From assembly GCF_000270205.1 (NCBI RefSeq), contig NC_015913.1:540109-572108 (forward strand): 32,000 bases of DNA, written 5' to 3'. The position numbers were made by a program, and so were the translations under genes. Each line of letters starts with the position of its first letter. The stretch's first letter is position 1. This DNA comes from Candidatus Arthromitus sp. SFB-mouse-Japan. Lineage in GTDB: Bacteria > Bacillota > Clostridia > Clostridiales > Clostridiaceae. Below the pieces are notes generated by a model that saw only the letters and a program-made list of their open reading frames with translations, did not search any database and was not told the DNA's origin. This document shows, piece after piece, positions 11,500 to 22,682 of this stretch.

Positions 11500-11886
11500 T
11501 TAATTATTAAGTTCAAATGAGTATGTACCAATACCATTATCGTATTTTAAATCTATGTAGTATATTTTTTCACTGTTAGGTTTAAGAGTAACTTCTTCTT
11601 TTGAAGAAGAACTTATATGTAAATATTCTTTACCATCTTCATCTACAACAGTTATATATGTTTTACCTGTTCTAAGTTTTAATGAAGATTTTAGAGTAGA
11701 TTCTTTTGAAATTGTGAATTTATAGGATTCAGTGCCAGAAAACTTTGAAAAATCTTGTGTTATTTGGGAATTTGGTTCTATTTCACCAATTATTGTTCTT
11801 TTTGTTTTAGGAGCATTAGAACATGAAGTTAAGAAAAGAGTAAGTGTTACAATAAATGTCCCTAATATTAAGTGTCGTGATTTCAT
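11500..11886 (-). CDS. Small lipoprotein of unknown function
   Basis: Signal peptide MKSRHLILGTFIVTLTLFLTSC with lipobox L-T-S-C. RBS AAAGGAGAG (complement of about 11894-11902). The mature part looks beta-rich. It is divergent from the giant-protein operon. Confidence 0.75.
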   Translation of the reverse strand: MKSRHLILGTFIVTLTLFLTSCSNAPKTKRTIIGEIEPNSQITQDFSKFSGTESYKFTISKESTLKSSLKLRTGKTYITVVDEDGKEYLHISSSSKEEVTLKPNSEKIYYIDLKYDNGIGTYSFELNN

Positions 11887-12002
11887 TATTGAACTCTCCT
11901 TTTAAGTACTTTGGATTTAGTATTGCACAAAAATAGGAAAAATTTCAAACAGTTTTACGATTTAACAATTATTTTAAGAATTTAGGAAAGGAAGGAATTA
12001 AT

Positions 12003-15000
12003 TTGAATAATGGAGCTTTAAAAATTTTAAATTCAATATTTTTACTCTTGTTTGTGGTAAATTGCTTGGGATTTTCTAGTGCATATTCTAAAAATAAAGT
12101 AGTTAAACAATCGAGAGCATATGATTTGGAATTAAAGATTGATAATGTGAATTTCAATTCAGCTAAATTTAGTTGGGTATATCCGGAAGACATTGAATTT
12201 ACATTTGGAGATTACATAAGTTTGATTTTGATTAATGAAGAGAATGGAAGTCAAGGAGAAACTCCTATATTTTCTGTCATTCATGGTAAAGATGAGGCAG
12301 ATTTATCAGAGATTACAAGTTTTGAAATTAATTCACTAATACATTCAACAAAGTATCAGTTGAAATTAGAATTAAGCAAAATACAAGGGGATTATTATTC
12401 TGTTGAGGAAAGTTTTGAAACATCTGATTTTGAAATATTTGATATTCAAATAGAGGGAGCAGAGGAGGGAGTAGTTAGAAATAAGCTATTGAAGGTTAAT
12501 TGGAAAACAAATCCTGAAACAGTAGATTTTGGAGAAAATGATAAGGTTGAGATATTTTTAAAGAAATTAAGTGACAATGATTTTTCGAAAAAGCCAATTT
12601 TTTCATCAGATAAAGATGTTAAGAGTGCAGAATTTTCTCTCCCTGTGTTTGAAGAAATGTATGATTTCAAAATAGCGTATCGCTTGAAAGGAAATGTAAT
12701 TTATAGTGATTTCTTTTACTGTGATTTAAAAAGTGGGGGAGCAATTCCTGAAATGCAAGATATAAAATCTTCATCGGCTAAGCTTACTTTGAATTATCTG
12801 AATGAGGAAATGTTAACTGAAAATAGTAAAGTTAATATCTACATTAAAGAAGATAGGAATCTTGATTATAGTAAAGATCCGATTGTTTCATTTGATGGTA
12901 AGGAAGAGATTATTAAAAATAAAGAATATGTATTTAATAAACTTAAGTTTTCAACAAAATATTATGTTAAAGTTCAACTTGTTGTTGAAAGTTTTAATGA
13001 ATTTGGAAAAGATATGCTAGCTATGGATGAGAATAGATGTGAGTTTGAAACGAAAAAATTTGATATAAAGGATTTAGTTTTTACTGATGGAAATGAAAAT
13101 ATCTCAAAGCTTAGTTGGAATTTTGATGGTGAGGATATTTCATTTTCTGAAGGAGATAATTTGAAAGTTTACATAAAAGAGAGCTCAAAAGATAGCTATT
13201 CAGAGGATATTTTAAAAGACAGTACTTTAAGTGTAGATGAATTATTGACAAAAAAAGAGTTGAATATTACGTTTCCTAAGTATGATACAAAATATGATAT
13301 CAAGTTAATTTATACTATTGGGGGTAAACAGCTTTCTAAATATTTAACTCATACTGTTTCTTTACCTAAAATTGATTTTGGAGTAAAGGTGTTAAGTGAT
13401 GAAAGTTTGGAATTTAAATTTAATTTTGATCAAAATAAAACTAGGTTTGAAAAAAATGAGAATGATAGAATAGAAATTTTTGTTAAAAAATATGGTGAAA
13501 AAGATGAGGCTTATAAGTCTATAACATTTAACGATGAGGAGTTAAATGATATGGAAGTTTCATCAAGAGAGGGAGAAGATGTAACTGAGAACAAAATAGA
13601 GCGAAAATTGAAGATTGAAAATATTTCATCTGTTGTTAATGGAGCTTCGGGATCAAGAGAGGGAAGTCAGGATGAAGGAGATCAAGTTAACAGTAGTGGA
13701 GGAGGTCAAGATGATTCAAGTTCCACGCAAGAGGAGAAAAAGCAATATGATTTTAAAATCGTTGTAACAAAAGATGGGGCTTTGTTCCAAGAGAAGTTTT
13801 ATAGAGTGTCAATGGAAAAGGATTCACTTCAAATTGTTGATGTGGTTTTTAAGAAGATAAATGAGAAAAAGGTTGAGACAAGTGTTGAGTATGCACCTTA
13901 TGATTATGATTTTAATGATAAGGTTGAATCGCTTAGTTATACAAAGGAGAAGAATTCATCTTCTAAAAGTAAAAATCCTGAATTTAAGAGGTCATCGAAT
14001 AAGACTACATCAATAACTAATGATTTTAAAACAAATAACAAATTTGAGATAGAGTTTGAAGATTTCGGAGTTTATAAATTGAAATTTTCGTATAAGATGA
14101 AGGAAAATGGAACTACAGATGGGGTTACTACTACTACTAGAAATTCAGAAAATCAGTTTAAATGTAACGAGATGGAAAAAATTTATGATAATAAGTTTGA
14201 TGTTTTTAAATTTGAGTTAGTAGATGATGTTTTTAATGAAATAAAATTAAATTTAAATTTTGTGAATTATTATAAGCCTAAAAATGGAGATAAAGTTGAT
14301 ATATTTTTCAAAGTAAGTGGTGATGAAAGTGAATCTGAATCCGGAGATGATAGTTTTAGTAAAGATCCATTAGTCACATTTGTTCATAAAGATAATGAAC
14401 TCAATTTAGTAAATATGGGAGCTTTTGATTTATCTGGACTTGATGCTGGAACTAAGTATACTTTTAGAGCGAAATTCACCGCTAAGGATCATATATCAAA
14501 TGTGATACAAGAAGATAAAAATGCAGCTACTAAAGATATTAAAATTTCTAATTTGAGGATTGATCATGTATCTGACATAGTTGCATATGTAAGATGGGAG
14601 CTTGAAGAGGGATTTGAGTTTGGAGTTAATGATAAAGTGGATATTTTCTATAAAGTAGATGGAGAGGAATATCCAGAAGAAGCAAACCAACAGGAAGAAG
14701 ATTTATATATTAGTGATGGAGTTATTATTTATTTAGATACAGTTGATACTCAATATAAAGTAAAGTTTATATTTAGGAGTGGAAGTAAAACTCTTGAGAA
14801 AGAAATAGATTTTAATAATAAAATAGATGATTTAGATGCCGAAATTACAGATGTTTATGAAACATCCACTTATATAAAATGGAATTATCCTTCTAATTAT
14901 GATTTTACAGATGGAGAAAGTATTGCAATATTTATAAAAACAAAGGATGGAACTTATGATGAAGAGCCAGATTATTATGTTGAACAAAATGAAGAAGAGG

Positions 15001-16388
15001 GCGAGGATGTAAAAACATTTAAAAGTATTAAAATGACAAATTTGTATCCAAATACAGAATATGATGCAAAAATTTTATTAGATTTTGGGGATGTAGGGAA
15101 GAAAGAAAAGGAAGTTAGTTTTAAGACTAAAGAAATTGATATGTTAAATATTTCACTTAAGGCGTTGTCTAATAATTTTTTTGATATAGGCTGGGAGTTT
15201 TCTTCAGATACACTTGATTTTGATGAATATGTGGATTCTTTAAATATATATAGGAAGCTTGAAGATGATGATTTTTCGGATTCTAATATTATTTATAAAA
15301 TTGAAAATGGTATTGATAAAAGAAATAGTATAAGACTTGAAGTAGATGATATTTATGAGAGTTATGATATTAAGATTGAATACAAATTTTTATCTGGAAG
15401 TATAGAGAAAACGATTTCTGCAGGAGGGTTTCTTGCGGAGTTTGAAGGGGATACATCTAATTTGATGGTGAAATATCCTGAATCTTTAGTATTTGAAAAA
15501 GGTGATTTTATAAAAGTTCTTGCAAGAGAAGGATTAGAGGGAGATTATGAAGATTTTATAAATATAGAACATTCATCTTCTGAAAATTTAAATAAATTAG
15601 AAAATATAGAATTAGATAGTTTACTTAGTGGAACATCGATTATTTTGAGCATTAACAATAAAAATACTCAAGTTTTTCCTGTAGAGATTACTTATGAATA
15701 TGAGGAAGTTGGAGATGAAGACGGGGGAGAATCAGAATATCCAGTTTTAGATATTGTAAGTGAAATGAAAGGAAATTGGGTAGATATAAGTATTCCAGAT
15801 GAATATGATATTGATACTTCATCAGAAGTTTTAAATAGCATTGGTGGTAATTCTTACTATGACCAATTAGAAGATGGAACGTATGTAATAGTAATAGATA
15901 GAATTGTACCTAAAAAAGTTTACTCTAATGTATTTGTTTTAACATCTGATATGAGTGGAAATGAAGTTAGGTTTGATATAGGTGAATTTCAATTAGAACC
16001 ATATAATTTGTTAGAAGATTTTCTATTTAACTCTTATTATTTTGCTTTTGATAGGGAACCTGATGAAAACGGATACAATTATTGGAAAGATCAACTTGAA
16101 GTAGAGGGAAATTTGTCAGGGAAGTATTTTCTTATTAATTTAATGTTTGCAGAAAGAGAGTTTGCAGATAGAAATCTGAGTGATGAAGATTTGATTAAAG
16201 CTTTATATCAAATTGTAGTTAACAGACAGTATGATACTGAAGGATTAAATTATTGGATTTATATGTATGGTGAATATTTAAATGAGTTCGGCGGTGATAA
16301 ATATGAAGCGAAGAAAACTTTAGTTTTAAGGATGGCTTATGAACCTGAGTTCGGAAGATTATGTGATGAAATGGGAATAGCTTGGTAA
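12003..16388 (+). CDS. Giant secreted Fn3-like repeat protein with C-terminal twin DUF4214-like cassette (paralogue A, 1461 aa)
   Basis: An uninterrupted 4.4-kb ORF. TTG start behind AGGAAAGGAAGG. The N-terminal hydrophobic signal-like segment is ILNSIFLLLFVVNCLGFSSA. About 12 modules of roughly 100 aa carry Fn3 hallmarks (W.YP...F..GD.I.IF.K, L.P.T.Y.AK). The C-terminus is FAFDREPDENGYNYW...ALYQIVVNRQYDTEGLNYW. Confidence 0.9.
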   Translation: MNNGALKILNSIFLLLFVVNCLGFSSAYSKNKVVKQSRAYDLELKIDNVNFNSAKFSWVYPEDIEFTFGDYISLILINEENGSQGETPIFSVIHGKDEADLSEITSFEINSLIHSTKYQLKLELSKIQGDYYSVEESFETSDFEIFDIQIEGAEEGVVRNKLLKVNWKTNPETVDFGENDKVEIFLKKLSDNDFSKKPIFSSDKDVKSAEFSLPVFEEMYDFKIAYRLKGNVIYSDFFYCDLKSGGAIPEMQDIKSSSAKLTLNYLNEEMLTENSKVNIYIKEDRNLDYSKDPIVSFDGKEEIIKNKEYVFNKLKFSTKYYVKVQLVVESFNEFGKDMLAMDENRCEFETKKFDIKDLVFTDGNENISKLSWNFDGEDISFSEGDNLKVYIKESSKDSYSEDILKDSTLSVDELLTKKELNITFPKYDTKYDIKLIYTIGGKQLSKYLTHTVSLPKIDFGVKVLSDESLEFKFNFDQNKTRFEKNENDRIEIFVKKYGEKDEAYKSITFNDEELNDMEVSSREGEDVTENKIERKLKIENISSVVNGASGSREGSQDEGDQVNSSGGGQDDSSSTQEEKKQYDFKIVVTKDGALFQEKFYRVSMEKDSLQIVDVVFKKINEKKVETSVEYAPYDYDFNDKVESLSYTKEKNSSSKSKNPEFKRSSNKTTSITNDFKTNNKFEIEFEDFGVYKLKFSYKMKENGTTDGVTTTTRNSENQFKCNEMEKIYDNKFDVFKFELVDDVFNEIKLNLNFVNYYKPKNGDKVDIFFKVSGDESESESGDDSFSKDPLVTFVHKDNELNLVNMGAFDLSGLDAGTKYTFRAKFTAKDHISNVIQEDKNAATKDIKISNLRIDHVSDIVAYVRWELEEGFEFGVNDKVDIFYKVDGEEYPEEANQQEEDLYISDGVIIYLDTVDTQYKVKFIFRSGSKTLEKEIDFNNKIDDLDAEITDVYETSTYIKWNYPSNYDFTDGESIAIFIKTKDGTYDEEPDYYVEQNEEEGEDVKTFKSIKMTNLYPNTEYDAKILLDFGDVGKKEKEVSFKTKEIDMLNISLKALSNNFFDIGWEFSSDTLDFDEYVDSLNIYRKLEDDDFSDSNIIYKIENGIDKRNSIRLEVDDIYESYDIKIEYKFLSGSIEKTISAGGFLAEFEGDTSNLMVKYPESLVFEKGDFIKVLAREGLEGDYEDFINIEHSSSENLNKLENIELDSLLSGTSIILSINNKNTQVFPVEITYEYEEVGDEDGGESEYPVLDIVSEMKGNWVDISIPDEYDIDTSSEVLNSIGGNSYYDQLEDGTYVIVIDRIVPKKVYSNVFVLTSDMSGNEVRFDIGEFQLEPYNLLEDFLFNSYYFAFDREPDENGYNYWKDQLEVEGNLSGKYFLINLMFAEREFADRNLSDEDLIKALYQIVVNRQYDTEGLNYWIYMYGEYLNEFGGDKYEAKKTLVLRMAYEPEFGRLCDEMGIAW
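12126..16007 (+). repeat. Array of about 12 divergent Fn3/Ig-like coding modules (about 300 nt each) in paralogue A
   Basis: The repeat is at protein level only. Recurrent signatures are W.[YF]P/W.F..., GD/ND-K-[VI]-x-I-[FY]-x-K, and either L.P.T.Y..K (type A) or Y[DS].K[IL].Y..GG (type B). No long identical nucleotide repeats were seen. Confidence 0.75.
16008..16385 (+). other. Twin DUF4214-like C-terminal cassette of paralogue A
   Basis: LLEDFLFNSYYFAFDREPDENGYNYWKDQL...EREF followed by LSDEDLIKALYQIVVNRQYDTEGLNYW. This gives two copies of the hh..hY...h.R.sD..G..YW pattern typical of DUF4214. The protein ends ...EMGIAW. Confidence 0.7.
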
Positions 16389-16411
16389 TTTTGTATTTAT
16401 GGAGGAGAGGA

Positions 16412-19400
16412 ATGAAAATATGTATGAAGAGATTCATTATTAATCTTATGACTCTTATATTTTTGTTTGAATTGATACCATTTGGGGAAATGGGAATTAA
16501 GTTCGGCTTTTTTAAGAAAGCCGAAGCTTATTATACCCAACTTGAAATGGTTGCACCAGGTTATGTGATAAGCCCTGAGGAAGGGGGGATTGTATTTGAT
16601 TTAAGTCAAAGATTATCATCTTCAATGAGTGTTGAATCGTTTAGTGTAAAGAATACAAATCCTGAACAGCAGAAGAAAGATTTAAAAGAGGAATCTTCTG
16701 ATGGAGTTAGATGGTTATCAAAGGATGAAATGATAAATGGTCATATTTATGAAATTGAAAGTAAGATTTATGATACTGACACGCAGGAAACAATAACATT
16801 TATAAATTCTTTTAAGTATATAGATAAAAATATAGCTTATAATCCTAAGCTATCTTTTTCGAAGTTTGATTCTAGTAGAATGGTTACTCAAGATGTTATA
16901 TTTGATTTTTCTGAGTGCAGGGAATTAATAGATAATTCAAATAATCTTAAGCTTGAGATTTTAAATTCTGATTTAACAAGAGCAGAGATAGATCCTATGA
17001 ATATTAATAAAAATGATGTTGTAAATAATGGATATAAGTATACTATTTCTAGAGCAGCTTCTTTATTTAGACCAAACAAAGATTATATAGTTAGACTCCA
17101 TGCAGATGGTATTATTTGGGATAAAATGATTTCTTGTCCAGTAAAGGGGAATCCTACGATAGTTGAAAATATTAAACCTGTAGCTATGGATTTTAGATAT
17201 TATCCTGAAAGCAGAAATTTTTACTTTCATACAATAGATCTTGGAATTTTTAAAAAATTTGAGGATAGGATTAATGTTGTGGTTAAGGCTATTTTAAATA
17301 ATCCAAAAAAAGGTTTTGTTCCAGTTGAGGTAACAGCTGAAATACCACATGTAATAGAAATTAAAGTTCCAGAAGAATATTATACTACATCAATACCAAG
17401 TGATTTGAGGGTTTATGTTATTGATAAGAGTACTGGACTTGTACTTGCTGAATATTTATTTCAGTTTACATTTAGGTCTGATAAGGGAATTATGATGTGG
17501 AGAAATTTAAAGCATTCAGCTGAAAAAGAAGCAACAGGATATAAGATTAATAAAATAAAATTAGATCATACTGACGATAACAATACTATTCCACATTCAT
17601 GGGATGGACTTCCTAGGGCACATTATATAACTCTTTATGATAATAAATTAGAAAATCAAATAGGTGGAGAATTCAGATTTGATGTTACAGATCCTGAGTA
17701 TAGAAAACAATTCCTTGAGCCGACTCATGATGTTAGAGGAGCTAATTTTAAGATACCATTTACTGATATGAAGCAAGGGTTTAATAGTTATAATTTTAAA
17801 GTTGAATCTAGTAGTCAGTATCCAGAGTGGGCATATGCACATATACCATTTGGATTTTATGCAGATGTTGCTGAAATAAAAGATTTAGATATTAATATAA
17901 AAAATGTAAAACCAAATGAAAATGGAGATAAGTATAGTTTTACTCTTGAAATAAAGAATCAAAAAATTGTTATTGGCGATAAGATGAGCTTTATAGATGA
18001 TGACGGTAAGGAGCATATATCTACTTCAAATAGTTCGAAGACATTTGACTTTAAAGATGTCCCAATGGTATTTGGAGGGAAATATGTGGTAACTTATAAT
18101 CAAATAAGTTCTTTGCTTCATTTTAAATCTACAGATTTATCTATATTGTTTAATCCAGTTGTTATAGGTACTTTTTCAGATGAGAGGGATAGTATTGAAA
18201 TTACTATCGATAATAAATATGAAAAAATTTTGAGCACTGATAAAGGTCAAAATAAGTTAAGAATACTTAATATGAATGGTACTAGTACGGGAAATGATTT
18301 TTCAAATTTTGGGATAGGAAAAACTAAATTTGCGTTAAATGGAAATTTGATTGAAGGAGAAAATTATATAGCAGAGGTATCTAATTCTAAGGGAGAAGTA
18401 TATAAAACTACTTTCCAGTATTCTACAATGAAACTTGATTTATCGGAGATAACAGGTACAACAGCAAAGCTTGACTGGGAATATCCTGATAATTACCTAA
18501 TAACTGATGGAGATGCATTAAGTATATATTTCAAAAAAGATGGATCTGGATATCCTGCTGTTCCCGATGCAAAAATAGTGCATGGTTTTCAAGGAGTAGA
18601 TTTCAATGACGTTACTACATACACGATTAAGAATATGAGCCCGAATGTAAACTATACGGCAAAGCTTGAACTTGCAACAAATGAAGGCATGACTTATGTG
18701 GATGAAGTTGAATTTGTAACGAGTACTTTTAAAATTTTAAATGAAGAAATTGAGGGTATTTCTGAAGATGGAACCGTAAATAGTAAATCTATAACTTTTA
18801 AGTGGGATATAAATCTTGGTGATATAGAATTTTATGAAGGTGATAAAGTTGAGGTTTTTCTTAAACCACTTTCTCATAATGCATTTCCCAAAACACCGAC
18901 GGCAACTATTGATAAAGATTTAAATAGAATGAAACGGATTAAATTTGATGTACCAAATTATTATGAATCTTATAGTGTCAAAATTGTATATACAATAGGT
19001 GGAGTTAGGCATACGAGTAAAGTATTAAATTTTACTGTGAATATGCAAGATGTTGAAGTATATATGAGTACTATTACTCAGTGTACAGCTAATATTAACT
19101 GGAAGTATCCAAAGGATGTAGATGTAGATAGTAATTTTGAAGAGGTTAGGATTTATACAAAAAAACACAGTGATTTAGAATTTAAGCTTGAAAAAACTTA
19201 TAATAAATCTGAGAAAGCTCTTAATGATGTAGTTAAACATGTGATTAAGAATTTAGGTATCGATACCAAATATAAAGCTAAATTAGTATTTAAAATTGGT
19301 GAAAAGTCAGTTGCAGGAGTGAAAGAAGAGATAACTCAAGTTGTTGAGACTGAATTTAAAACAGAGAATTTTGTTATAGAAAAATTTAATGTTACGAATG

Positions 19401-22400
19401 ATATAAGTAATTTCATAATAGCAACATGGGATATAAAAGATGATAGTTATCCTTATACTACAAATGATAGTGTGGCACTTTTTGTAAAAGAAAGAGGAGA
19501 ACCATCACAAAATTATATTAGAATTAATTCTATGGGAGGAGATATTGCAGGGAAAAGATCATTTAATGGATCTATGGTACCTAAATACAATGTGGATTAC
19601 GATGTAAAATTGACCTATACCTTAGGAGAAAAAGAAGTTAGTGCTTATTCAGCTATTAAATTAGATATTGGTTATATAAAACTCAAGATAGACGAAATAA
19701 ATGATACTAAAATTAAACTTTCTTGGACTTATCCAAATGAGATTTTAAGAGGTGATAAGGTCGAAATAAGTTTAAAAAATCTTAGTAATGAAAATGACGT
19801 AAAATCTGAATCAAAGGTTCAGAATTTTGATCATGGAAATACTGTTATGATTGAAGAGTTTAGAGAAAAAGAATTTGATTTAACTAAGGATAATATGTAT
19901 GAAGTTAAACTTAGGTTAACTTCAGATTATTTTTATCCTATGGAAGAATCATTCAGGTTTAAGGCTACTTCTGATTTTCAAATTTTAAGTTTAGATGGTG
20001 AGTCTATGGACTCTAGTACATTTAAACTTGATTGGGATTTTTATAATAATAATCAAGAATTTAATACAAGTGATAAAGTTGAAATTTTATATAAACGATT
20101 GAATGAATTAGATTTTCAAAGTAATGCTAGGACGACAAGTGAAGATGATCAATTTACAGGTATTAGTTCTGTTAATATGCAAACTGGAACTGAATTGAGC
20201 AGATTTAAATCCTACATAGTTCAGGGACTTGATGTGAATAAGGATTATTTATTTAGAGTACGTTATACATTTAATAAAGATAGAATTCAAAAGGTAGTAT
20301 ATAAAGATTTAGTAGGAAAAACAGAGCCTAAAAAACTGAATTCAAGTGTAATTGATGTACAGCCAACAGGTGTTAAAATTATGCTTGAGTATCCAGAGGC
20401 CTATGAAATAGTGGAAGGCGATATTTTAGATATATTTATAAAGGAAAAAGAAGGAGCAAATTATGGAGTTAATCCTAATTTTACTGGGAAACATGGTAAT
20501 GAAGAGGGCGATTTTGATTTAAATGAGGTAACTATGCTTGATATACTTGGATTATCTCCAGATAAAGAGTATAATGCTAAAGTTGTATTTTGGCCAGATG
20601 GTGGGTCAGGAAATAAAGAAGAGGTAGAACTTAGTTTCAAAACAGATACCGTAAAAGGTATAGCTGAAGTATCTATAGGTGATGTATTGGATTATGTTGT
20701 AAAAGTTGGTATCAAGATGAATCCAGAAGAAATTATTTTAAGTGATAAGGATAGTTGTAAAATTTTTATAAAGAAAAAGGATCAACCACATTATCAAGAT
20801 ACACCAAATGGTGAAATGCGAGGAGATATATTCAACGAAGAAAGATTTGTATCAGCATATTTCGATGAGTTGAATGCAGAGTATACTGTAAAAGCTGTGG
20901 TAAATATCGGAGGTAGTGAATTTGAATATGAGACCGACTTTGTAAGCAAAGTTGATGATTTTAGTATTGATGTTATAGAAATTAATCCGATGACAACACA
21001 AGTTGAATGGAAATATCCAGATAACTATACTCTTGTAAATGGTGAAAGTATTCAAATATTTATTAAGTATAAAGATGAAGAAGATTTCTTGAGTGAACCT
21101 GATCTTGAACTTATTCAATCAGAAGAAATGAGCTTATATGATACAAATTTGGTTGAGTTATATTCACTAATACCTGATACAGATTATGAAGTTAAAGTTA
21201 AATTGAATTTATTGGAGGCAGATATTGAACCGATTATTAAAGAATTTACAACAACGACTTTTGAAATAGAAAATTTGGAGATAGCAGATGTAAGCAGTGA
21301 TGGAATGTCTCTCACATGGGAGTTAAGTACAGAGGAATTGGATTTTTTAGATGATTATGATAATTTAGCTATATTTATAAAAAATAAGAATGAAGATGAT
21401 TATGATTTTTCGAATCCTGTGGCGGAGTTTACTGAAGACTTAAATAATATAAGATCTGTGTCTTTTGAGACAGAAGAGAGTATAGCAGATATTGATATTT
21501 ATGTATCATATTTAATTGAAGATTATGAAGCAGCTATGGAAATATCATATACAGCAATTGAACTTAGTGTTGAAGTGCAAGATGAGGGTGTATTAGTTGA
21601 ATGGAGTTATCCTCCTGGAATAGAATTTGAACCTGAGGATAAACTCGATATTTATTTGAAACACGCAAATAAGTCAGGATATAAAACAGAGCCAAATTTT
21701 AGATACACTCATGAAGAAGATGGGGATTTGACTGAGTTGAATCAAATATTCTTTAAGAAATTAGAAAAAGGGAACTATAAGATGAAATTTTCTTTAATTA
21801 CTGCTGATATGAGATATAATCCTATAGAAATTGAGTTTAGTACGGAAGGTAGTCAAGAAGTAATAGATGGAATAGAACTTAAGTTTAATGGTAAATCGAG
21901 TGGAAGAAAAATAGAACTAAATATTGTTGGAGATGAAGAATTTGATTATGAAAAAGGATTTTATATTGATCCTGAAGGATTAGATCTTGAAATAGATGAA
22001 GATAGAAATAAGTTTATAGTTTTAAATTTAGTTCCAAATAAGGAATATAAAAATATAATTATAACGTTCTTTACAGCAGATGATGAAGAAGTTAATTTTG
22101 TTGTTAAAAATGTGAAAATAGATCCAGAAACTCTTTTGGAAGAATTCATAACAAATATTTATAAGTTTGCGTTTGAACGTTATCCAGATGAAGAAGGATA
22201 TAGCTATTGGTTAGGGAAACTTCTTGAAAAAGGTGAAATTACAGGTAAATTTGTTTTATATAATTTGATGTTTTCAGAACGTGAGTTCTCTGATAGAAAT
22301 CTTTCTGATGATGATCTCATAAAGGTTTTATATCAGATAGTGGTTAATAGAGAGTATGATGAGGGAGGACTTAATTATTGGATAGGTGAATATAGAAACA

Positions 22401-22516
22401 CATATTTACCTCAAGCAAATAATGATAGTTATGAAGCACAGAAGGCTATAGTAGAGAGAATGTTACATGAACAGGAATTTAAAGATTTGTGCAACAAAAT
22501 GGGAATCTTATGGTAA
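16412..22516 (+). CDS. Giant secreted Fn3-like repeat protein with unique N-terminal region and C-terminal twin DUF4214-like cassette (paralogue B, about 2034 aa)
   Basis: An uninterrupted 6.1-kb ORF. I prefer the ATG at 16412, 6 nt after GGAGGAGAGG (16401-16410), over the ORF-track start at 16382. The N-terminal hydrophobic segment is FIINLMTLIFLFELIPFG...KKAEA. A non-repeat region of about 635 aa precedes about 12 Fn3-like modules, and the C-terminus is colinear with paralogue A. It starts 23 nt after the paralogue A stop with no terminator in between. Confidence 0.9.
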   Translation: MKICMKRFIINLMTLIFLFELIPFGEMGIKFGFFKKAEAYYTQLEMVAPGYVISPEEGGIVFDLSQRLSSSMSVESFSVKNTNPEQQKKDLKEESSDGVRWLSKDEMINGHIYEIESKIYDTDTQETITFINSFKYIDKNIAYNPKLSFSKFDSSRMVTQDVIFDFSECRELIDNSNNLKLEILNSDLTRAEIDPMNINKNDVVNNGYKYTISRAASLFRPNKDYIVRLHADGIIWDKMISCPVKGNPTIVENIKPVAMDFRYYPESRNFYFHTIDLGIFKKFEDRINVVVKAILNNPKKGFVPVEVTAEIPHVIEIKVPEEYYTTSIPSDLRVYVIDKSTGLVLAEYLFQFTFRSDKGIMMWRNLKHSAEKEATGYKINKIKLDHTDDNNTIPHSWDGLPRAHYITLYDNKLENQIGGEFRFDVTDPEYRKQFLEPTHDVRGANFKIPFTDMKQGFNSYNFKVESSSQYPEWAYAHIPFGFYADVAEIKDLDINIKNVKPNENGDKYSFTLEIKNQKIVIGDKMSFIDDDGKEHISTSNSSKTFDFKDVPMVFGGKYVVTYNQISSLLHFKSTDLSILFNPVVIGTFSDERDSIEITIDNKYEKILSTDKGQNKLRILNMNGTSTGNDFSNFGIGKTKFALNGNLIEGENYIAEVSNSKGEVYKTTFQYSTMKLDLSEITGTTAKLDWEYPDNYLITDGDALSIYFKKDGSGYPAVPDAKIVHGFQGVDFNDVTTYTIKNMSPNVNYTAKLELATNEGMTYVDEVEFVTSTFKILNEEIEGISEDGTVNSKSITFKWDINLGDIEFYEGDKVEVFLKPLSHNAFPKTPTATIDKDLNRMKRIKFDVPNYYESYSVKIVYTIGGVRHTSKVLNFTVNMQDVEVYMSTITQCTANINWKYPKDVDVDSNFEEVRIYTKKHSDLEFKLEKTYNKSEKALNDVVKHVIKNLGIDTKYKAKLVFKIGEKSVAGVKEEITQVVETEFKTENFVIEKFNVTNDISNFIIATWDIKDDSYPYTTNDSVALFVKERGEPSQNYIRINSMGGDIAGKRSFNGSMVPKYNVDYDVKLTYTLGEKEVSAYSAIKLDIGYIKLKIDEINDTKIKLSWTYPNEILRGDKVEISLKNLSNENDVKSESKVQNFDHGNTVMIEEFREKEFDLTKDNMYEVKLRLTSDYFYPMEESFRFKATSDFQILSLDGESMDSSTFKLDWDFYNNNQEFNTSDKVEILYKRLNELDFQSNARTTSEDDQFTGISSVNMQTGTELSRFKSYIVQGLDVNKDYLFRVRYTFNKDRIQKVVYKDLVGKTEPKKLNSSVIDVQPTGVKIMLEYPEAYEIVEGDILDIFIKEKEGANYGVNPNFTGKHGNEEGDFDLNEVTMLDILGLSPDKEYNAKVVFWPDGGSGNKEEVELSFKTDTVKGIAEVSIGDVLDYVVKVGIKMNPEEIILSDKDSCKIFIKKKDQPHYQDTPNGEMRGDIFNEERFVSAYFDELNAEYTVKAVVNIGGSEFEYETDFVSKVDDFSIDVIEINPMTTQVEWKYPDNYTLVNGESIQIFIKYKDEEDFLSEPDLELIQSEEMSLYDTNLVELYSLIPDTDYEVKVKLNLLEADIEPIIKEFTTTTFEIENLEIADVSSDGMSLTWELSTEELDFLDDYDNLAIFIKNKNEDDYDFSNPVAEFTEDLNNIRSVSFETEESIADIDIYVSYLIEDYEAAMEISYTAIELSVEVQDEGVLVEWSYPPGIEFEPEDKLDIYLKHANKSGYKTEPNFRYTHEEDGDLTELNQIFFKKLEKGNYKMKFSLITADMRYNPIEIEFSTEGSQEVIDGIELKFNGKSSGRKIELNIVGDEEFDYEKGFYIDPEGLDLEIDEDRNKFIVLNLVPNKEYKNIIITFFTADDEEVNFVVKNVKIDPETLLEEFITNIYKFAFERYPDEEGYSYWLGKLLEKGEITGKFVLYNLMFSEREFSDRNLSDDDLIKVLYQIVVNREYDEGGLNYWIGEYRNTYLPQANNDSYEAQKAIVERMLHEQEFKDLCNKMGILW
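18434..22132 (+). repeat. Array of about 12 divergent Fn3/Ig-like coding modules in paralogue B
   Basis: Examples are AKLDWEYPDNYLITDGDALSIYFKK...IKNMSPNVNYTAKLEL, VEWKYPDNYTLVNGESIQIFIKYK...LYSLIPDTDYEVKVKL and VEWSYPPGIEFEPEDKLDIYLKH. These are interleaved with type B modules ending YSVKIVYTIGG, YDVKLTYTLGE and YTVKAVVNIGG. Confidence 0.75.
22133..22513 (+). other. Twin DUF4214-like C-terminal cassette of paralogue B
   Basis: LLEEFITNIYKFAFERYPDEEGYSYWLGKL...EREF followed by LSDDDLIKVLYQIVVNREYDEGGLNYW. The protein ends ...KMGILW. This is the segment most similar between the two paralogues. Confidence 0.7.
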
Positions 22517-22520
22517 TATA

Positions 22521-22554
22521 TTAACCATCAATATTAATTGATGGTTAATTTTTT
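22521..22554 (+). terminator. Rho-independent terminator of the giant-protein operon
   Basis: A perfect 12-bp stem TTAACCATCAAT (22521-22532) / ATTGATGGTTAA (22537-22548) with loop ATTA, followed by TTTTTT. Confidence 0.85.
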
Positions 22555-22682
22555 GGCAAATTTGGAAATAATTAATTTTGTAAAGTTAATAATGATAATT
22601 TGAGTTAAAAATAGTAGATAGACTTCAGGTGCAATTATAAAGTAAGATATAAATTATTGGTAATAAACGTAGGAGGTGGATC

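Follow-up and report, generated by a model that had tools for sequence, protein, structure and literature searches.

A conserved gene pair for giant Fn3-rich proteins with DUF4214 C-termini, predicted to be wall-held rods, in segmented filamentous bacteria

Two adjacent genes, here called ORF1 and ORF2 (ORF, open reading frame), occupy positions 12003-22516 of a 32,000-nt stretch of the chromosome of Candidatus Arthromitus sp. SFB-mouse-Japan (NC_015913.1, 540,109-572,108; GCF_000270205.1), one of the segmented filamentous bacteria (SFB) and a symbiont of the mouse gut. We call the whole stretch the window. Both genes are long, lie on the + strand, and encode proteins with many fibronectin type III (Fn3)-like modules and a C-terminal DUF4214 region. 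Sequence comparison indicates that synteny of the pair holds in SFB lineages whose proteins are as little as about 40% identical, and that ORF2 exists, at aa about 150-520, as two discrete alleles in otherwise near-identical SFB genomes; both observations are new here. We consider it likely that the pair is a conserved chromosomal two-gene unit of SFB, encoding two paralogous, very acidic, Sec-exported rod proteins that are held at the wall.

The C-terminus places both proteins beside a group that has been described before. In 2012, Pamp reported SFB-specific clusters of predicted secreted proteins with four conserved C-terminal regions similar to PF13946 (DUF4214); the regions consist of tandem helices with a modelled resemblance to the phycobilisome linker 2KY4, one Cluster.3 member has an Fn3 domain, and the Cluster proteins were proposed to be components of surface structures (PMC3371716). 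In 2020, Jonsson reported that SFB have no sortase gene and postulated that at least 14 surface proteins, among them the Th17 antigen P3340 (SFBNYU_003340), are anchored by the C-terminal motif (PMC7474095). P3340 was placed at the wall by immuno-electron microscopy (PMC7474095, PMC12780176). In 2025, Cruz described P3340 as an abundant cell-wall-associated protein and DUF4214 as a likely surface-anchoring domain, which is also present in SFB peptidoglycan hydrolases (PMC12780176). A preprint of 2026 located a CD8 T-cell epitope in another DUF4214 protein, SFBNYU_003240 (PMC13174671). The surface proteins of SFB evolve faster than the remaining proteome, and a role in host specificity has been proposed for them (PMC7474095).

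ORF1 and ORF2 have the features that define this family, namely an SFB genome, a PF13946 C-terminus, and a predicted N-terminal signal. On this evidence they belong to the described SFB-specific family of surface proteins with a DUF4214 tail, and wall localization is predicted for the pair. The likeness extends to the helical nature of the C-terminal cassette, the low similarity of members to one another outside the ends, the rapid divergence between host-specific lineages, and, in the Cluster.3 member, the Fn3 domain. The pair differs from the family in size (169 kDa for ORF1 and 235 kDa for ORF2, against about 110 kDa for P3340), in the 11 Fn3-like modules of each protein, and in being encoded as a conserved adjacent pair. 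An earlier note on this DNA, made from the sequence alone, held that the architecture was not a characterized one and that the proteins had no recognizable Gram-positive anchoring device. The first claim does not stand, because the family was described in 2012; the second is not supported, in view of the anchor function proposed for the DUF4214 C-terminus in sortase-less SFB, with which the hydrolase fusions reported below agree. Current views are not overturned by our results, and the existing anchor hypothesis is sharpened.

The gene pair and its domain anatomy

The two genes and their expression signals are as follows.

11984-11995, +, purine-rich ribosome-binding site (RBS) AGGAAAGGAAGG, 5' of the ORF1 TTG, read directly from the sequence
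12003-16388, +, ORF1, 1461 aa, 169 kDa, pI 4.45; TTG start
16389-16411, +, intergenic spacer of 23 nt, containing the RBS GGAGGAGAGG at 16401-16410
16412-22516, +, ORF2, 2034 aa, 235 kDa, pI 4.64; ATG start
22520-22555, +, intrinsic terminator after ORF2, with a perfect 13-bp stem (hairpin and T-run at 22520-22549) and a 4-nt loop

The deposited 1461-aa protein WP_007443675.1 and a cluster member starting with LNNGAL are both consistent with the TTG start of ORF1. In the list of ORFs, ORF2 begins at the TTG at 16382 (2044 aa). We took the ATG at 16412, which lies 6 nt past GGAGG, as the sensible start, because the RBS GGAGGAGAGG precedes it and because the 2034-aa product matches the deposited protein exactly. 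That protein is SFBM_0511 (BAK56289.1 / WP_014017878.1) of SFB-mouse-Japan; the host, which the earlier note had guessed to be a gut-epithelium-associated relative of Clostridia, is thus mouse SFB. ORF1 shares a 90%-identity cluster with SFBSU_006G241, SFBNYU_010710, and WP_007443675.1 (SFB-mouse-SU and SFB-mouse-NYU). The deposited annotation of both genes says only hypothetical or DUF4214 domain-containing protein. No terminator-like hairpin was found in the 23-nt spacer, and the sequence confirms the arrangement given in the earlier note, that is, two adjacent ORFs on the same strand, a short gap with an RBS, and a terminator after the second gene only. The two genes are probably co-transcribed.

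The domains of the two proteins are listed below. A slash marks the putative cut of a signal peptide, and HMM stands for hidden Markov model.

12003-12083, +, ORF1 putative signal peptide: MNNGALK, hydrophobic core, SSA/YS; second A/Y candidate at residue 39
12117-15707, +, ORF1 stalk of 11 Fn3-like modules, aa 39-1235 (module HMM, E 1e-27 to 1e-14; Pfam fn3)
13635-13742, +, ORF1 low-complexity insert rich in Ser/Gly/Asp/Glu, aa about 545-580, between modules 5 and 6
15708-15998, +, ORF1 predicted pre-anchor Ig-like beta-sandwich, aa 1236-1332, which aligns with the ORF2 pre-anchor domain
15999-16385, +, ORF1 twin-DUF4214 helical cassette, aa 1333-1461, ending in MGIAW (PF13946; 60% identical to the ORF2 cassette)
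16412-16528, +, ORF2 putative signal peptide: MKICMKR, Glu-containing hydrophobic core, KKAEA/YY at residue 39
16529-18415, +, ORF2 N-terminal region, aa 40-668, modelled as about six all-beta Ig/Fn3/MG-like domains (AlphaFold2)
18416-21850, +, ORF2 stalk of 11 Fn3-like modules, aa 669-1813 (module HMM; Pfam fn3)
21851-22123, +, ORF2 pre-anchor Ig-like beta-sandwich, aa 1814-1904, modelled by AlphaFold2 (strands at model residues 8-88)
22124-22513, +, ORF2 twin-DUF4214 cassette, aa 1905-2034, ending in MGILW, modelled as an 8-helix bundle; 16% aromatic

In Pfam searches, fn3 (PF00041) scored 30.8 bits in ORF1 and 66.3 bits in ORF2 (cutoff 25), and DUF4214 (PF13946) scored 45.4 and 53.3 bits, respectively (cutoff 23.2), in two stretches per protein. 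The other matches at E<=1 were one sub-threshold fn3-like match and, in ORF1, sub-threshold matches to SH3_1, SH3_2, and hGDE_N; no NCBIfam model matched either protein. The modules were counted with an iterated module HMM, which found 11 Fn3-like modules of about 100 aa in each protein, with E values of 1e-14 to 1e-28 per module. The Fn3-rich composition in modules of about 100 aa and the common DUF4214 terminus, both read by eye in the earlier note, are thus supported by scores above the cutoffs.

The modules of ORF2 alternate between two subtypes, odd modules resembling odd ones and even modules resembling even ones. The best cross-matches between ORF1 and ORF2 are partly collinear (modules 1-1, 2-2, and 10-10, pre-anchor to pre-anchor domain, and cassette to cassette), which suggests that the two stalks are old paralogues. 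Module 4 of ORF1 scores 110 against module 4 of ORF2 and higher, 131, against module 2 of ORF2. Pairwise BLOSUM scores among the modules are low, and Tandem Repeats Finder detected no tandem repetition at the DNA level beyond two trivial 15-nt repeats. The Ser/Gly/Asp/Glu-rich linker of ORF1 is poorly conserved, and its length varies among SFB lineages.

The N-terminal region of ORF2 had been taken for a head distinct from the stalk. In the AlphaFold2 model of aa 40-668 (629 aa, 14 orthologous sequences; pLDDT 87.8, pTM 0.78), this region consists of more beta-sandwich domains, and according to the model ORF2 is a rod of greater length, not a stalk topped by a globular head. The two-component fibre of a stalk-only and a head-plus-stalk protein, suggested in the earlier note, stays a conjecture, and its head is more rod in the model. 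The region has no Pfam match and no PDB sequence match. Foldseek against PDB matched cytokine-receptor ectodomains, MG domains of complement/alpha-2-macroglobulin, the Bap BSP domain, and fibronectin fragments, and no enzyme or lectin structure was matched in this search. The E values were 1e-11 to 1e-8, but TM was <0.2; thus, the beads are alike and their overall path is different.

The last 221 aa of ORF2 were modelled as a small beta-sandwich followed by an 8-helix bundle (pLDDT 87.4, pTM 0.81), and in this model the bundle corresponds to two DUF4214 repeats. Foldseek gave weak Ig/Rib/CopC-like matches for the pre-anchor domain. The C-terminal cassette that the earlier note had seen in both proteins therefore stands as far as DUF4214 is concerned and is corrected in extent, as the common unit is predicted to comprise the Ig-like domain together with the 8-helix cassette. 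The extended length was computed as about 40-45 nm for ORF1 (12 beta domains) and about 58-68 nm for ORF2 (18 beta domains). Both proteins are very acidic (pI 4.45 and 4.64).

Signal peptides were judged heuristically by hydropathy, the -3/-1 rule, and conservation among orthologues. Both N-termini have a basic region, a hydrophobic core of 17-20 residues (2.4 in a Kyte-Doolittle window of 15 residues), and a candidate AXA site (SSA/Y or SRA/Y in ORF1, and KKAEA/Y in ORF2), and the N-terminal core is the only hydrophobic stretch in each protein. The AXA sites are conserved across four paralogous families, and the [KE]A-x-A/[FY] site is found in all ORF2 orthologues and in a third paralogous family. 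By these heuristics the N-termini are signal-like, as the earlier note had claimed, and cleavage of the signal peptides is predicted. The signals have a shape that is typical of the family, with a polar or acidic residue (E, D, or N) in the core and a long C-terminal region that closes with [KE]A-x-A. That the signal sequences of the DUF4214-tail family of SFB are conserved to an unusual degree has also been remarked on in the literature. This shape may hint at a dedicated export or sorting route.

Conservation of the pair and the two alleles of ORF2

The proteins returned by the homologue search were all of SFB type, and intact orthologues reach down to 43% identity. We scanned for synteny by a degenerate-pattern search with one genome per species and found three further loci, in a Clostridiales metagenome-assembled genome, in Candidatus Dwaynia gallinarum, and in an uncultured Arthromitus. 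The ORF2 orthologues at these loci have 2019-2043 aa and are 43-48% identical. A large, co-oriented ORF lies directly 5' of each of them (1523 and 1528 aa, the third being cut by the contig end), and in the two complete cases this ORF is the orthologue of ORF1 (40-48% identical). The gaps between the paired ORFs at the three distant loci are 7-24 nt, and the flanking genes match those of the window. Judging from these sequences, the adjacency of the pair has been retained since before the divergence of these SFB lineages, and such conservation argues for co-expression of ORF1 and ORF2. The co-transcription proposed in the earlier note gains support from this tight coupling, and the two genes do co-occur beyond mouse SFB, in three distant lineages.

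The neighbours of the pair are chromosomal housekeeping genes. RecJ, a PAS histidine kinase, MurG, and a TPR protein are encoded upstream, and ZapA, rubrerythrin, a CDF transporter, a MATE transporter, a transglycosylase, and a U32 peptidase are encoded downstream. Large repetitive Ig-like proteins can resemble phage fibres, and in one NCBI/JGI assembly ORF2 is split near aa 1229 into P0065 (1229 aa) and P0066 (805 aa); the split could be a frameshift, a pseudogene, or an assembly error. The idea that the pair comes from a prophage or mobile element, where it might encode tail fibres, or that the ORFs are non-functional artefacts is, however, effectively refuted. There are no PHROG matches, the flanks are housekeeping (RecJ, histidine kinase, MurG, ZapA, and rubrerythrin) with identical synteny in distant lineages, and orthologues are intact down to 43% identity, with a dN/dS of 0.29 outside the variable cassette described next. 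The first two of these observations led us to reject a phage or mobile-element origin.

The variable part of ORF2 comprises two features.

16750-18100, +, dimorphic hypervariable cassette, ORF2 aa about 120-560, with its core at aa 250-400 (drop in DNA identity, dS, and allele classes)
17591-17686, +, conserved patch PHSWDGLPRAHYITLYDNKLENQIGGEFRFDV, ORF2 aa 394-425, inside the variable cassette and just past its most variable core

Proteins in the 90%-identity cluster of ORF2 come in two lengths, of 2034 and 2029 aa. Compared in segments of 50 residues, the two forms are 96-100% identical outside aa about 100-550 and 34-84% identical at aa about 150-500. At the DNA level, the window was compared with L004, a contig of 20 kb that comes from an independent sample. 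Outside the variable part about 19 kb can be aligned, with an identity of 98.7-100% in the flanks and of 99.0-100% in ORF1 and the rest of ORF2. The identity is 62-81% at about 16,900-17,800, and the transitions lie at about 16,750 and about 18,100, about 1.3 kb apart. Substitution rates were calculated by the Nei-Gojobori method. In the variable cassette, dS is 0.42 (0.45-0.75 in the core) and omega is 0.5-0.74, whereas in the remaining 1474 ORF2 codons dS is 0.006 and omega is 0.29. Thirteen cluster members fall into two discrete allele classes, with 98.6-100% identity within and 63% between the classes.

At aa 200-480, the allele of the window is 63.3% identical to rat-SFB, compared with 56.9% to the other mouse allele. 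Past aa 600, the two mouse alleles are 99.7% identical to each other and 73% identical to rat. The high synonymous divergence excludes local hypermutation, and the sequences point to an old allele that was kept or was imported via homologous recombination. No second (silent donor) copy of the variable cassette was found in the 32-kb window, and no reverse transcriptase was found among the neighbouring genes of the window. With a dS of 0.42-0.75 in addition, variation by silent-cassette conversion or by a diversity-generating retroelement was rejected for the window. The dimorphism is not mentioned in the searched literature on DUF4214-tail proteins of SFB.

Among ten divergent orthologues, aa 251-350 are the least conserved part of ORF2 (mean identity 20-29%). 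The conserved patch follows the pattern PHSWDG.PRAHY...QIGGE.R.DV, with 14 invariant residues from P394 to V425 in 16/16 orthologues, and may be a functional site.

These observations bear on the possibility that ORF2, alone or together with ORF1, serves as a host-specific adhesin at the holdfast tip, whose variable N-terminal domains would bind a ligand of the ileal epithelium and help to set the host specificity of SFB. A long Ig/Fn3 stalk carrying a binding region at its far end is typical of Gram-positive and RTX adhesins, and the Foldseek matches include the Bap BSP domain (7c7u), a large-adhesin extender (6xi3), and a Rib domain. The N-terminal region diverges fastest between host-specific lineages, beside the invariant patch of aa 394-425, and fast-evolving SFB surface proteins have been proposed as mediators of host specificity (PMC7474095). 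We nevertheless judge this function to be unlikely. No lectin-like or recognizable binding fold was found in the ORF2 head. Both alleles are present in genomes that otherwise hardly differ from the mouse reference; should both come from mice, the variation would not follow the host species. Neither protein is among the immunodominant SFB antigens found so far (SFB3340, 3310, 5460, 15470, and 003240).

The comparison with known giant adhesins is also mixed. ORF1 and ORF2 resemble Bap/Esp, Rib/alpha-like, SasG, SraP, and RTX adhesins in that a long beta-sandwich rod presents a distinct distal region. They differ from Bap, Rib, and SasG in that their modules are ancient and divergent, with two subtypes in ORF2 and without tandem repeats at the DNA level. 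They also have no LPXTG motif, no RTX or type I secretion signal, and no identifiable ligand-binding fold.

Two further comparisons with SFB antigens and proteins were made. Neither ORF1 nor ORF2 is among the four B-cell antigens obtained by phage display, and two DUF4214 peptides in a proteomics table of human SFB, checked by eye, have no apparent match to them. The QF[ST]G motif of the 7B8 epitope had suggested that ORF2 might be the Th17 antigen P3340. This candidate was rejected, as the epitope strings (QFSGAV, GAVPNK, and related fragments) are absent from the six frames of the window and the recombinant tagged Th17Ag is about 114 kDa, compared with 169 kDa for ORF1 and 235 kDa for ORF2.

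The C-terminal cassette as a candidate wall anchor

Pfam detected no SLH, CWB2, LysM, GW, or choline-binding repeats in either protein at E<=1, and hydropathy showed no C-terminal hydrophobic segment in either. No LPXTG-like sorting signal was found in the two proteins; the LP motifs of the pair are LPVFE, LPKID, LPRAH, and LPQAN only, of which LPQAN is the sole loose match to the pattern. The earlier note had reported the same absences, and the profile searches for wall-anchor families, which gave fn3 and DUF4214 and no canonical anchor, bear it out. The pair therefore differs from sortase-anchored LPXTG proteins in both the motif and the hydrophobic segment, and SFB have no sortase (PMC7474095).

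A C-terminal unit of about 175-220 aa, with 38 invariant alignment columns, is common to four giant SFB protein families, namely the ORF1-like family, the ORF2-like family, a family of about 1900-1980 aa with a member from SFB-mouse, and another of about 1430-1710 aa. Among the ten divergent orthologues, the cassette is the best conserved part of ORF2 (mean pairwise identity 74-83%). The cassettes are rich in aromatic residues (16-20% F, W, and Y). Beyond the ORF1-like and ORF2-like families, at least two giant families have the common C-terminal unit, P0038-P0050 (for example, P0040 of SFB-mouse, 1918 aa) and P0016-P0027/P0052. The family of about 1900 aa has an extra tail of 12-13 residues (RQQDQDAAGVVA) beyond the otherwise terminal Trp, and the family of about 1430 aa ends in Tyr and is without the conserved Cys.

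We surveyed representative proteins by an exhaustive HMMER search with a profile of the 130-aa helical cassette. The profile matched 12,207 proteins at E<=1e-3 and 4,098 at E<=1e-10, and many of these carry 3-10 tandem copies. A Pfam scan of 64 of the closest non-SFB matches found the following partner domains (counts are members).

GH25 muramidase: 3/64
Glucosaminidase: 3/64
VgrG3-like C-terminal domain (VgrG3-like_C): 3/64
NlpC/P60: 2/64
CHAP: 2/64
YkuD L,D-transpeptidase: 2/64
Phage lysozyme: 2/64
Polysaccharide deacetylase: 2/64
VanY: 1/64
Choline_bind_3 (choline-binding repeat): 4/64
Choline_bind_1 (cell wall binding repeat): 2/64
SH3_3: 3/64
G5: 1/64
Big_2: 4/64
BspA-type LRR: 3/64

The partners from GH25 muramidase to VanY are peptidoglycan-active domains, and SH3_3 and the choline-binding repeats are wall-binding modules. 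As read from these domain assignments, the set of partners is that of the classic plan of Gram-positive autolysins, in which a catalytic domain is joined to a wall-binding module, and of surface proteins that are kept on the wall by a repeated, non-catalytic module. The fusions to peptidoglycan hydrolases support the anchor hypothesis by association, which is not proof of an anchor function, and the cassette is predicted to bind the wall. The logic is common to CWB2 proteins (Cwp of Clostridioides difficile) and to SLH, SH3b, LysM, and choline-binding proteins, where a conserved terminal module retains varied passengers without a sortase, and the DUF4214 cassettes have similar peptidoglycan-hydrolase partners. 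ORF1 and ORF2 differ from CWB2, SLH, SH3, and LysM proteins in having no sequence match to them and in the cassette, which is an all-helical bundle in the model.

The phycobilisome linker domain PF00427 was weakly co-matched in 28/64 of the cassette relatives, in keeping with the linker-like fold that has been reported (PMC3371716), and did not match ORF1 or ORF2 at E<=1. The cassette is like the linker (PDB 2KY4) in being helical and of similar size. It differs in that Foldseek gave no significant helical match against PDB, and the photosynthetic antenna context is unrelated.

Conservation at the C-terminus and variability in the N-terminal region agree with the C-terminus being near the wall and the N-terminus exposed, and we infer this C-in/N-out polarity for both proteins.

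A proposed pair of wall-held rods and its possible roles

We propose that both proteins would be exported via Sec and that the C-terminal Ig-like domain and the 8-helix twin-DUF4214 cassette would hold each of them non-covalently at the wall. The DUF4214 unit would thereby be the SFB substitute for sortase/LPXTG, SLH, or CWB2 anchoring, and a rigid chain of beta-sandwiches would project outward from each protein. The distal N-terminal third of ORF2, which has the segment with two ancient recombining alleles, would be an exposed end facing host antibody, ligand, or phage. This tip may be under diversifying or balancing pressure.

Several points weigh against this proposal. The cleavage site of ORF2 is unusually far, about 14 residues, past the hydrophobic core, and ORF2 could be kept as an uncleaved N-terminal signal-anchor. 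With a pI of 4.3-4.5 the cassette is acidic, whereas many wall-binding modules are basic. Searches of PDB by sequence, by profile, and with Foldseek gave no significant match to its fold, and Foldseek of the C-terminal model gave weak Ig matches only. By analogy, the cassette might dock on another protein and not on a wall polymer, because the phycobilisome linker, its only known structural analogy, is a protein-protein adaptor. The omega of 0.5-0.74 in the variable cassette is below 1; thus, positive selection is not demonstrated. Finally, the locus tags of both genes were not found in the searchable literature.

Some of the same points would be accommodated if the polarity were inverted, with ORF2 fixed by an N-terminal signal-anchor, or if the proteins were freely secreted, with the DUF4214 cassette as a docking or oligomerization module like the phycobilisome linker. 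The long spacer between the hydrophobic core and the AXA site of ORF2, the acidic cassette, and the PF00427 co-matches among the cassette relatives together with the structural analogy to 2KY4 (PMC3371716) are all in its favour. We regard this arrangement as improbable, since all orthologues and the paralogous families retain the AXA/[FY] site, fusions of the cassette to peptidoglycan hydrolases recur among other proteins of Firmicutes type, P3340 with the same tail is wall-associated by immuno-electron microscopy (PMC7474095, PMC12780176), and a conserved C-terminus with a variable N-terminus fits a proximal C-terminus.

If the two proteins are wall-held rods, specific roles as adhesin, discussed above, or as surface-layer subunit may be considered on the basis of their sequences. 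Cryo-electron tomography has shown hairs on SFB with a length of 28-34 nm and a width of about 1.3-1.4 nm, which touch the outer zone of the wall and are conserved from mouse-SFB to rat-SFB (PMC12780176). ORF1 and ORF2 could be structural subunits of an SFB outer layer seen by this method, the Fn3 rods being the 'hairs' and the cassette lying in the wall. As thin beta-sandwich rods of 38-68 nm when extended, partly buried if wall-anchored, they would have the right order of length, and two proteins would match the inner and outer hair-like layers that have been reported. Like S-layer proteins, ORF1 and ORF2 are acidic; they are also conserved in all sampled SFB lineages and paired in one operon. 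The likeness to S-layer proteins, in acidic pI and large size, concerns indirect properties. We see such a structural role as possible but doubtful. The proteins are predicted to be longer than the 28-34 nm measured for the hairs and, at about 2-2.5 nm for an Fn3 rod, also wider than their 1.3 nm. A dimorphic tip is unexpected for a lattice-forming subunit, and there are many other candidates, with at least 14-19 SFB proteins that have a DUF4214 tail and at least two more giant families that combine Fn3 and DUF4214.

A more detailed version is that ORF1 and ORF2 jointly build the hair-like structures or layer of SFB, anchored by the cassette, with the dimorphic domains of ORF2 outermost and maintained as an ancient balanced polymorphism. 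We offer this version tentatively and do not expect it to hold. If true, it would give the first molecular identification of the SFB outer layer and the first experimentally assignable function of DUF4214, as a non-covalent wall anchor of Gram-positive type.

The preferred reading, a pair of wall-held rods, has consequences of its own. Several immunodominant SFB antigens (P3340 and SFBNYU_003240) share the DUF4214 tail with the pair, and two members of the largest class in the DUF4214-tail family would form a conserved operon of rods tens of nanometres long. The hydrolase fusions are independent comparative support for a wall-retention role and would give a role to a domain that occurs in over 12,000 representative proteins. 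The sharply bounded two-allele locus of ORF2 could be used to mark strains and is a candidate target for selection by host antibody or ligand. The alleles may help to explain differences between SFB stocks of different colonies.

Some minor features of the window complete the description. The window is AT-rich (GC 21-31% across its length). GC skew is above 0 in each 1-kb segment (1-32000) and most large genes are on the + strand, which is consistent with a leading-strand segment. No tRNA genes or Rfam families were detected in scans of the window, and a promoter consensus scan was uninformative (59 sites, compared with 73 expected by chance). A 10-bp GC-containing hairpin, TTCGGCTTTT-TTAA-GAAAGCCGAA, at 16502-16525 (+), lies within the coding region of the ORF2 signal peptide. 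It was flagged as terminator-like and is probably no terminator, because it is without a proper T-run; it might affect translation or mRNA stability. A 128-aa ORF at 11500-11886 (-), divergent from the pair, encodes a lipoprotein signal (lipobox LTSC) and matched nothing in Pfam or PHROG; the near-identical SFB contig L004 has the ORF call at the equivalent position as well.

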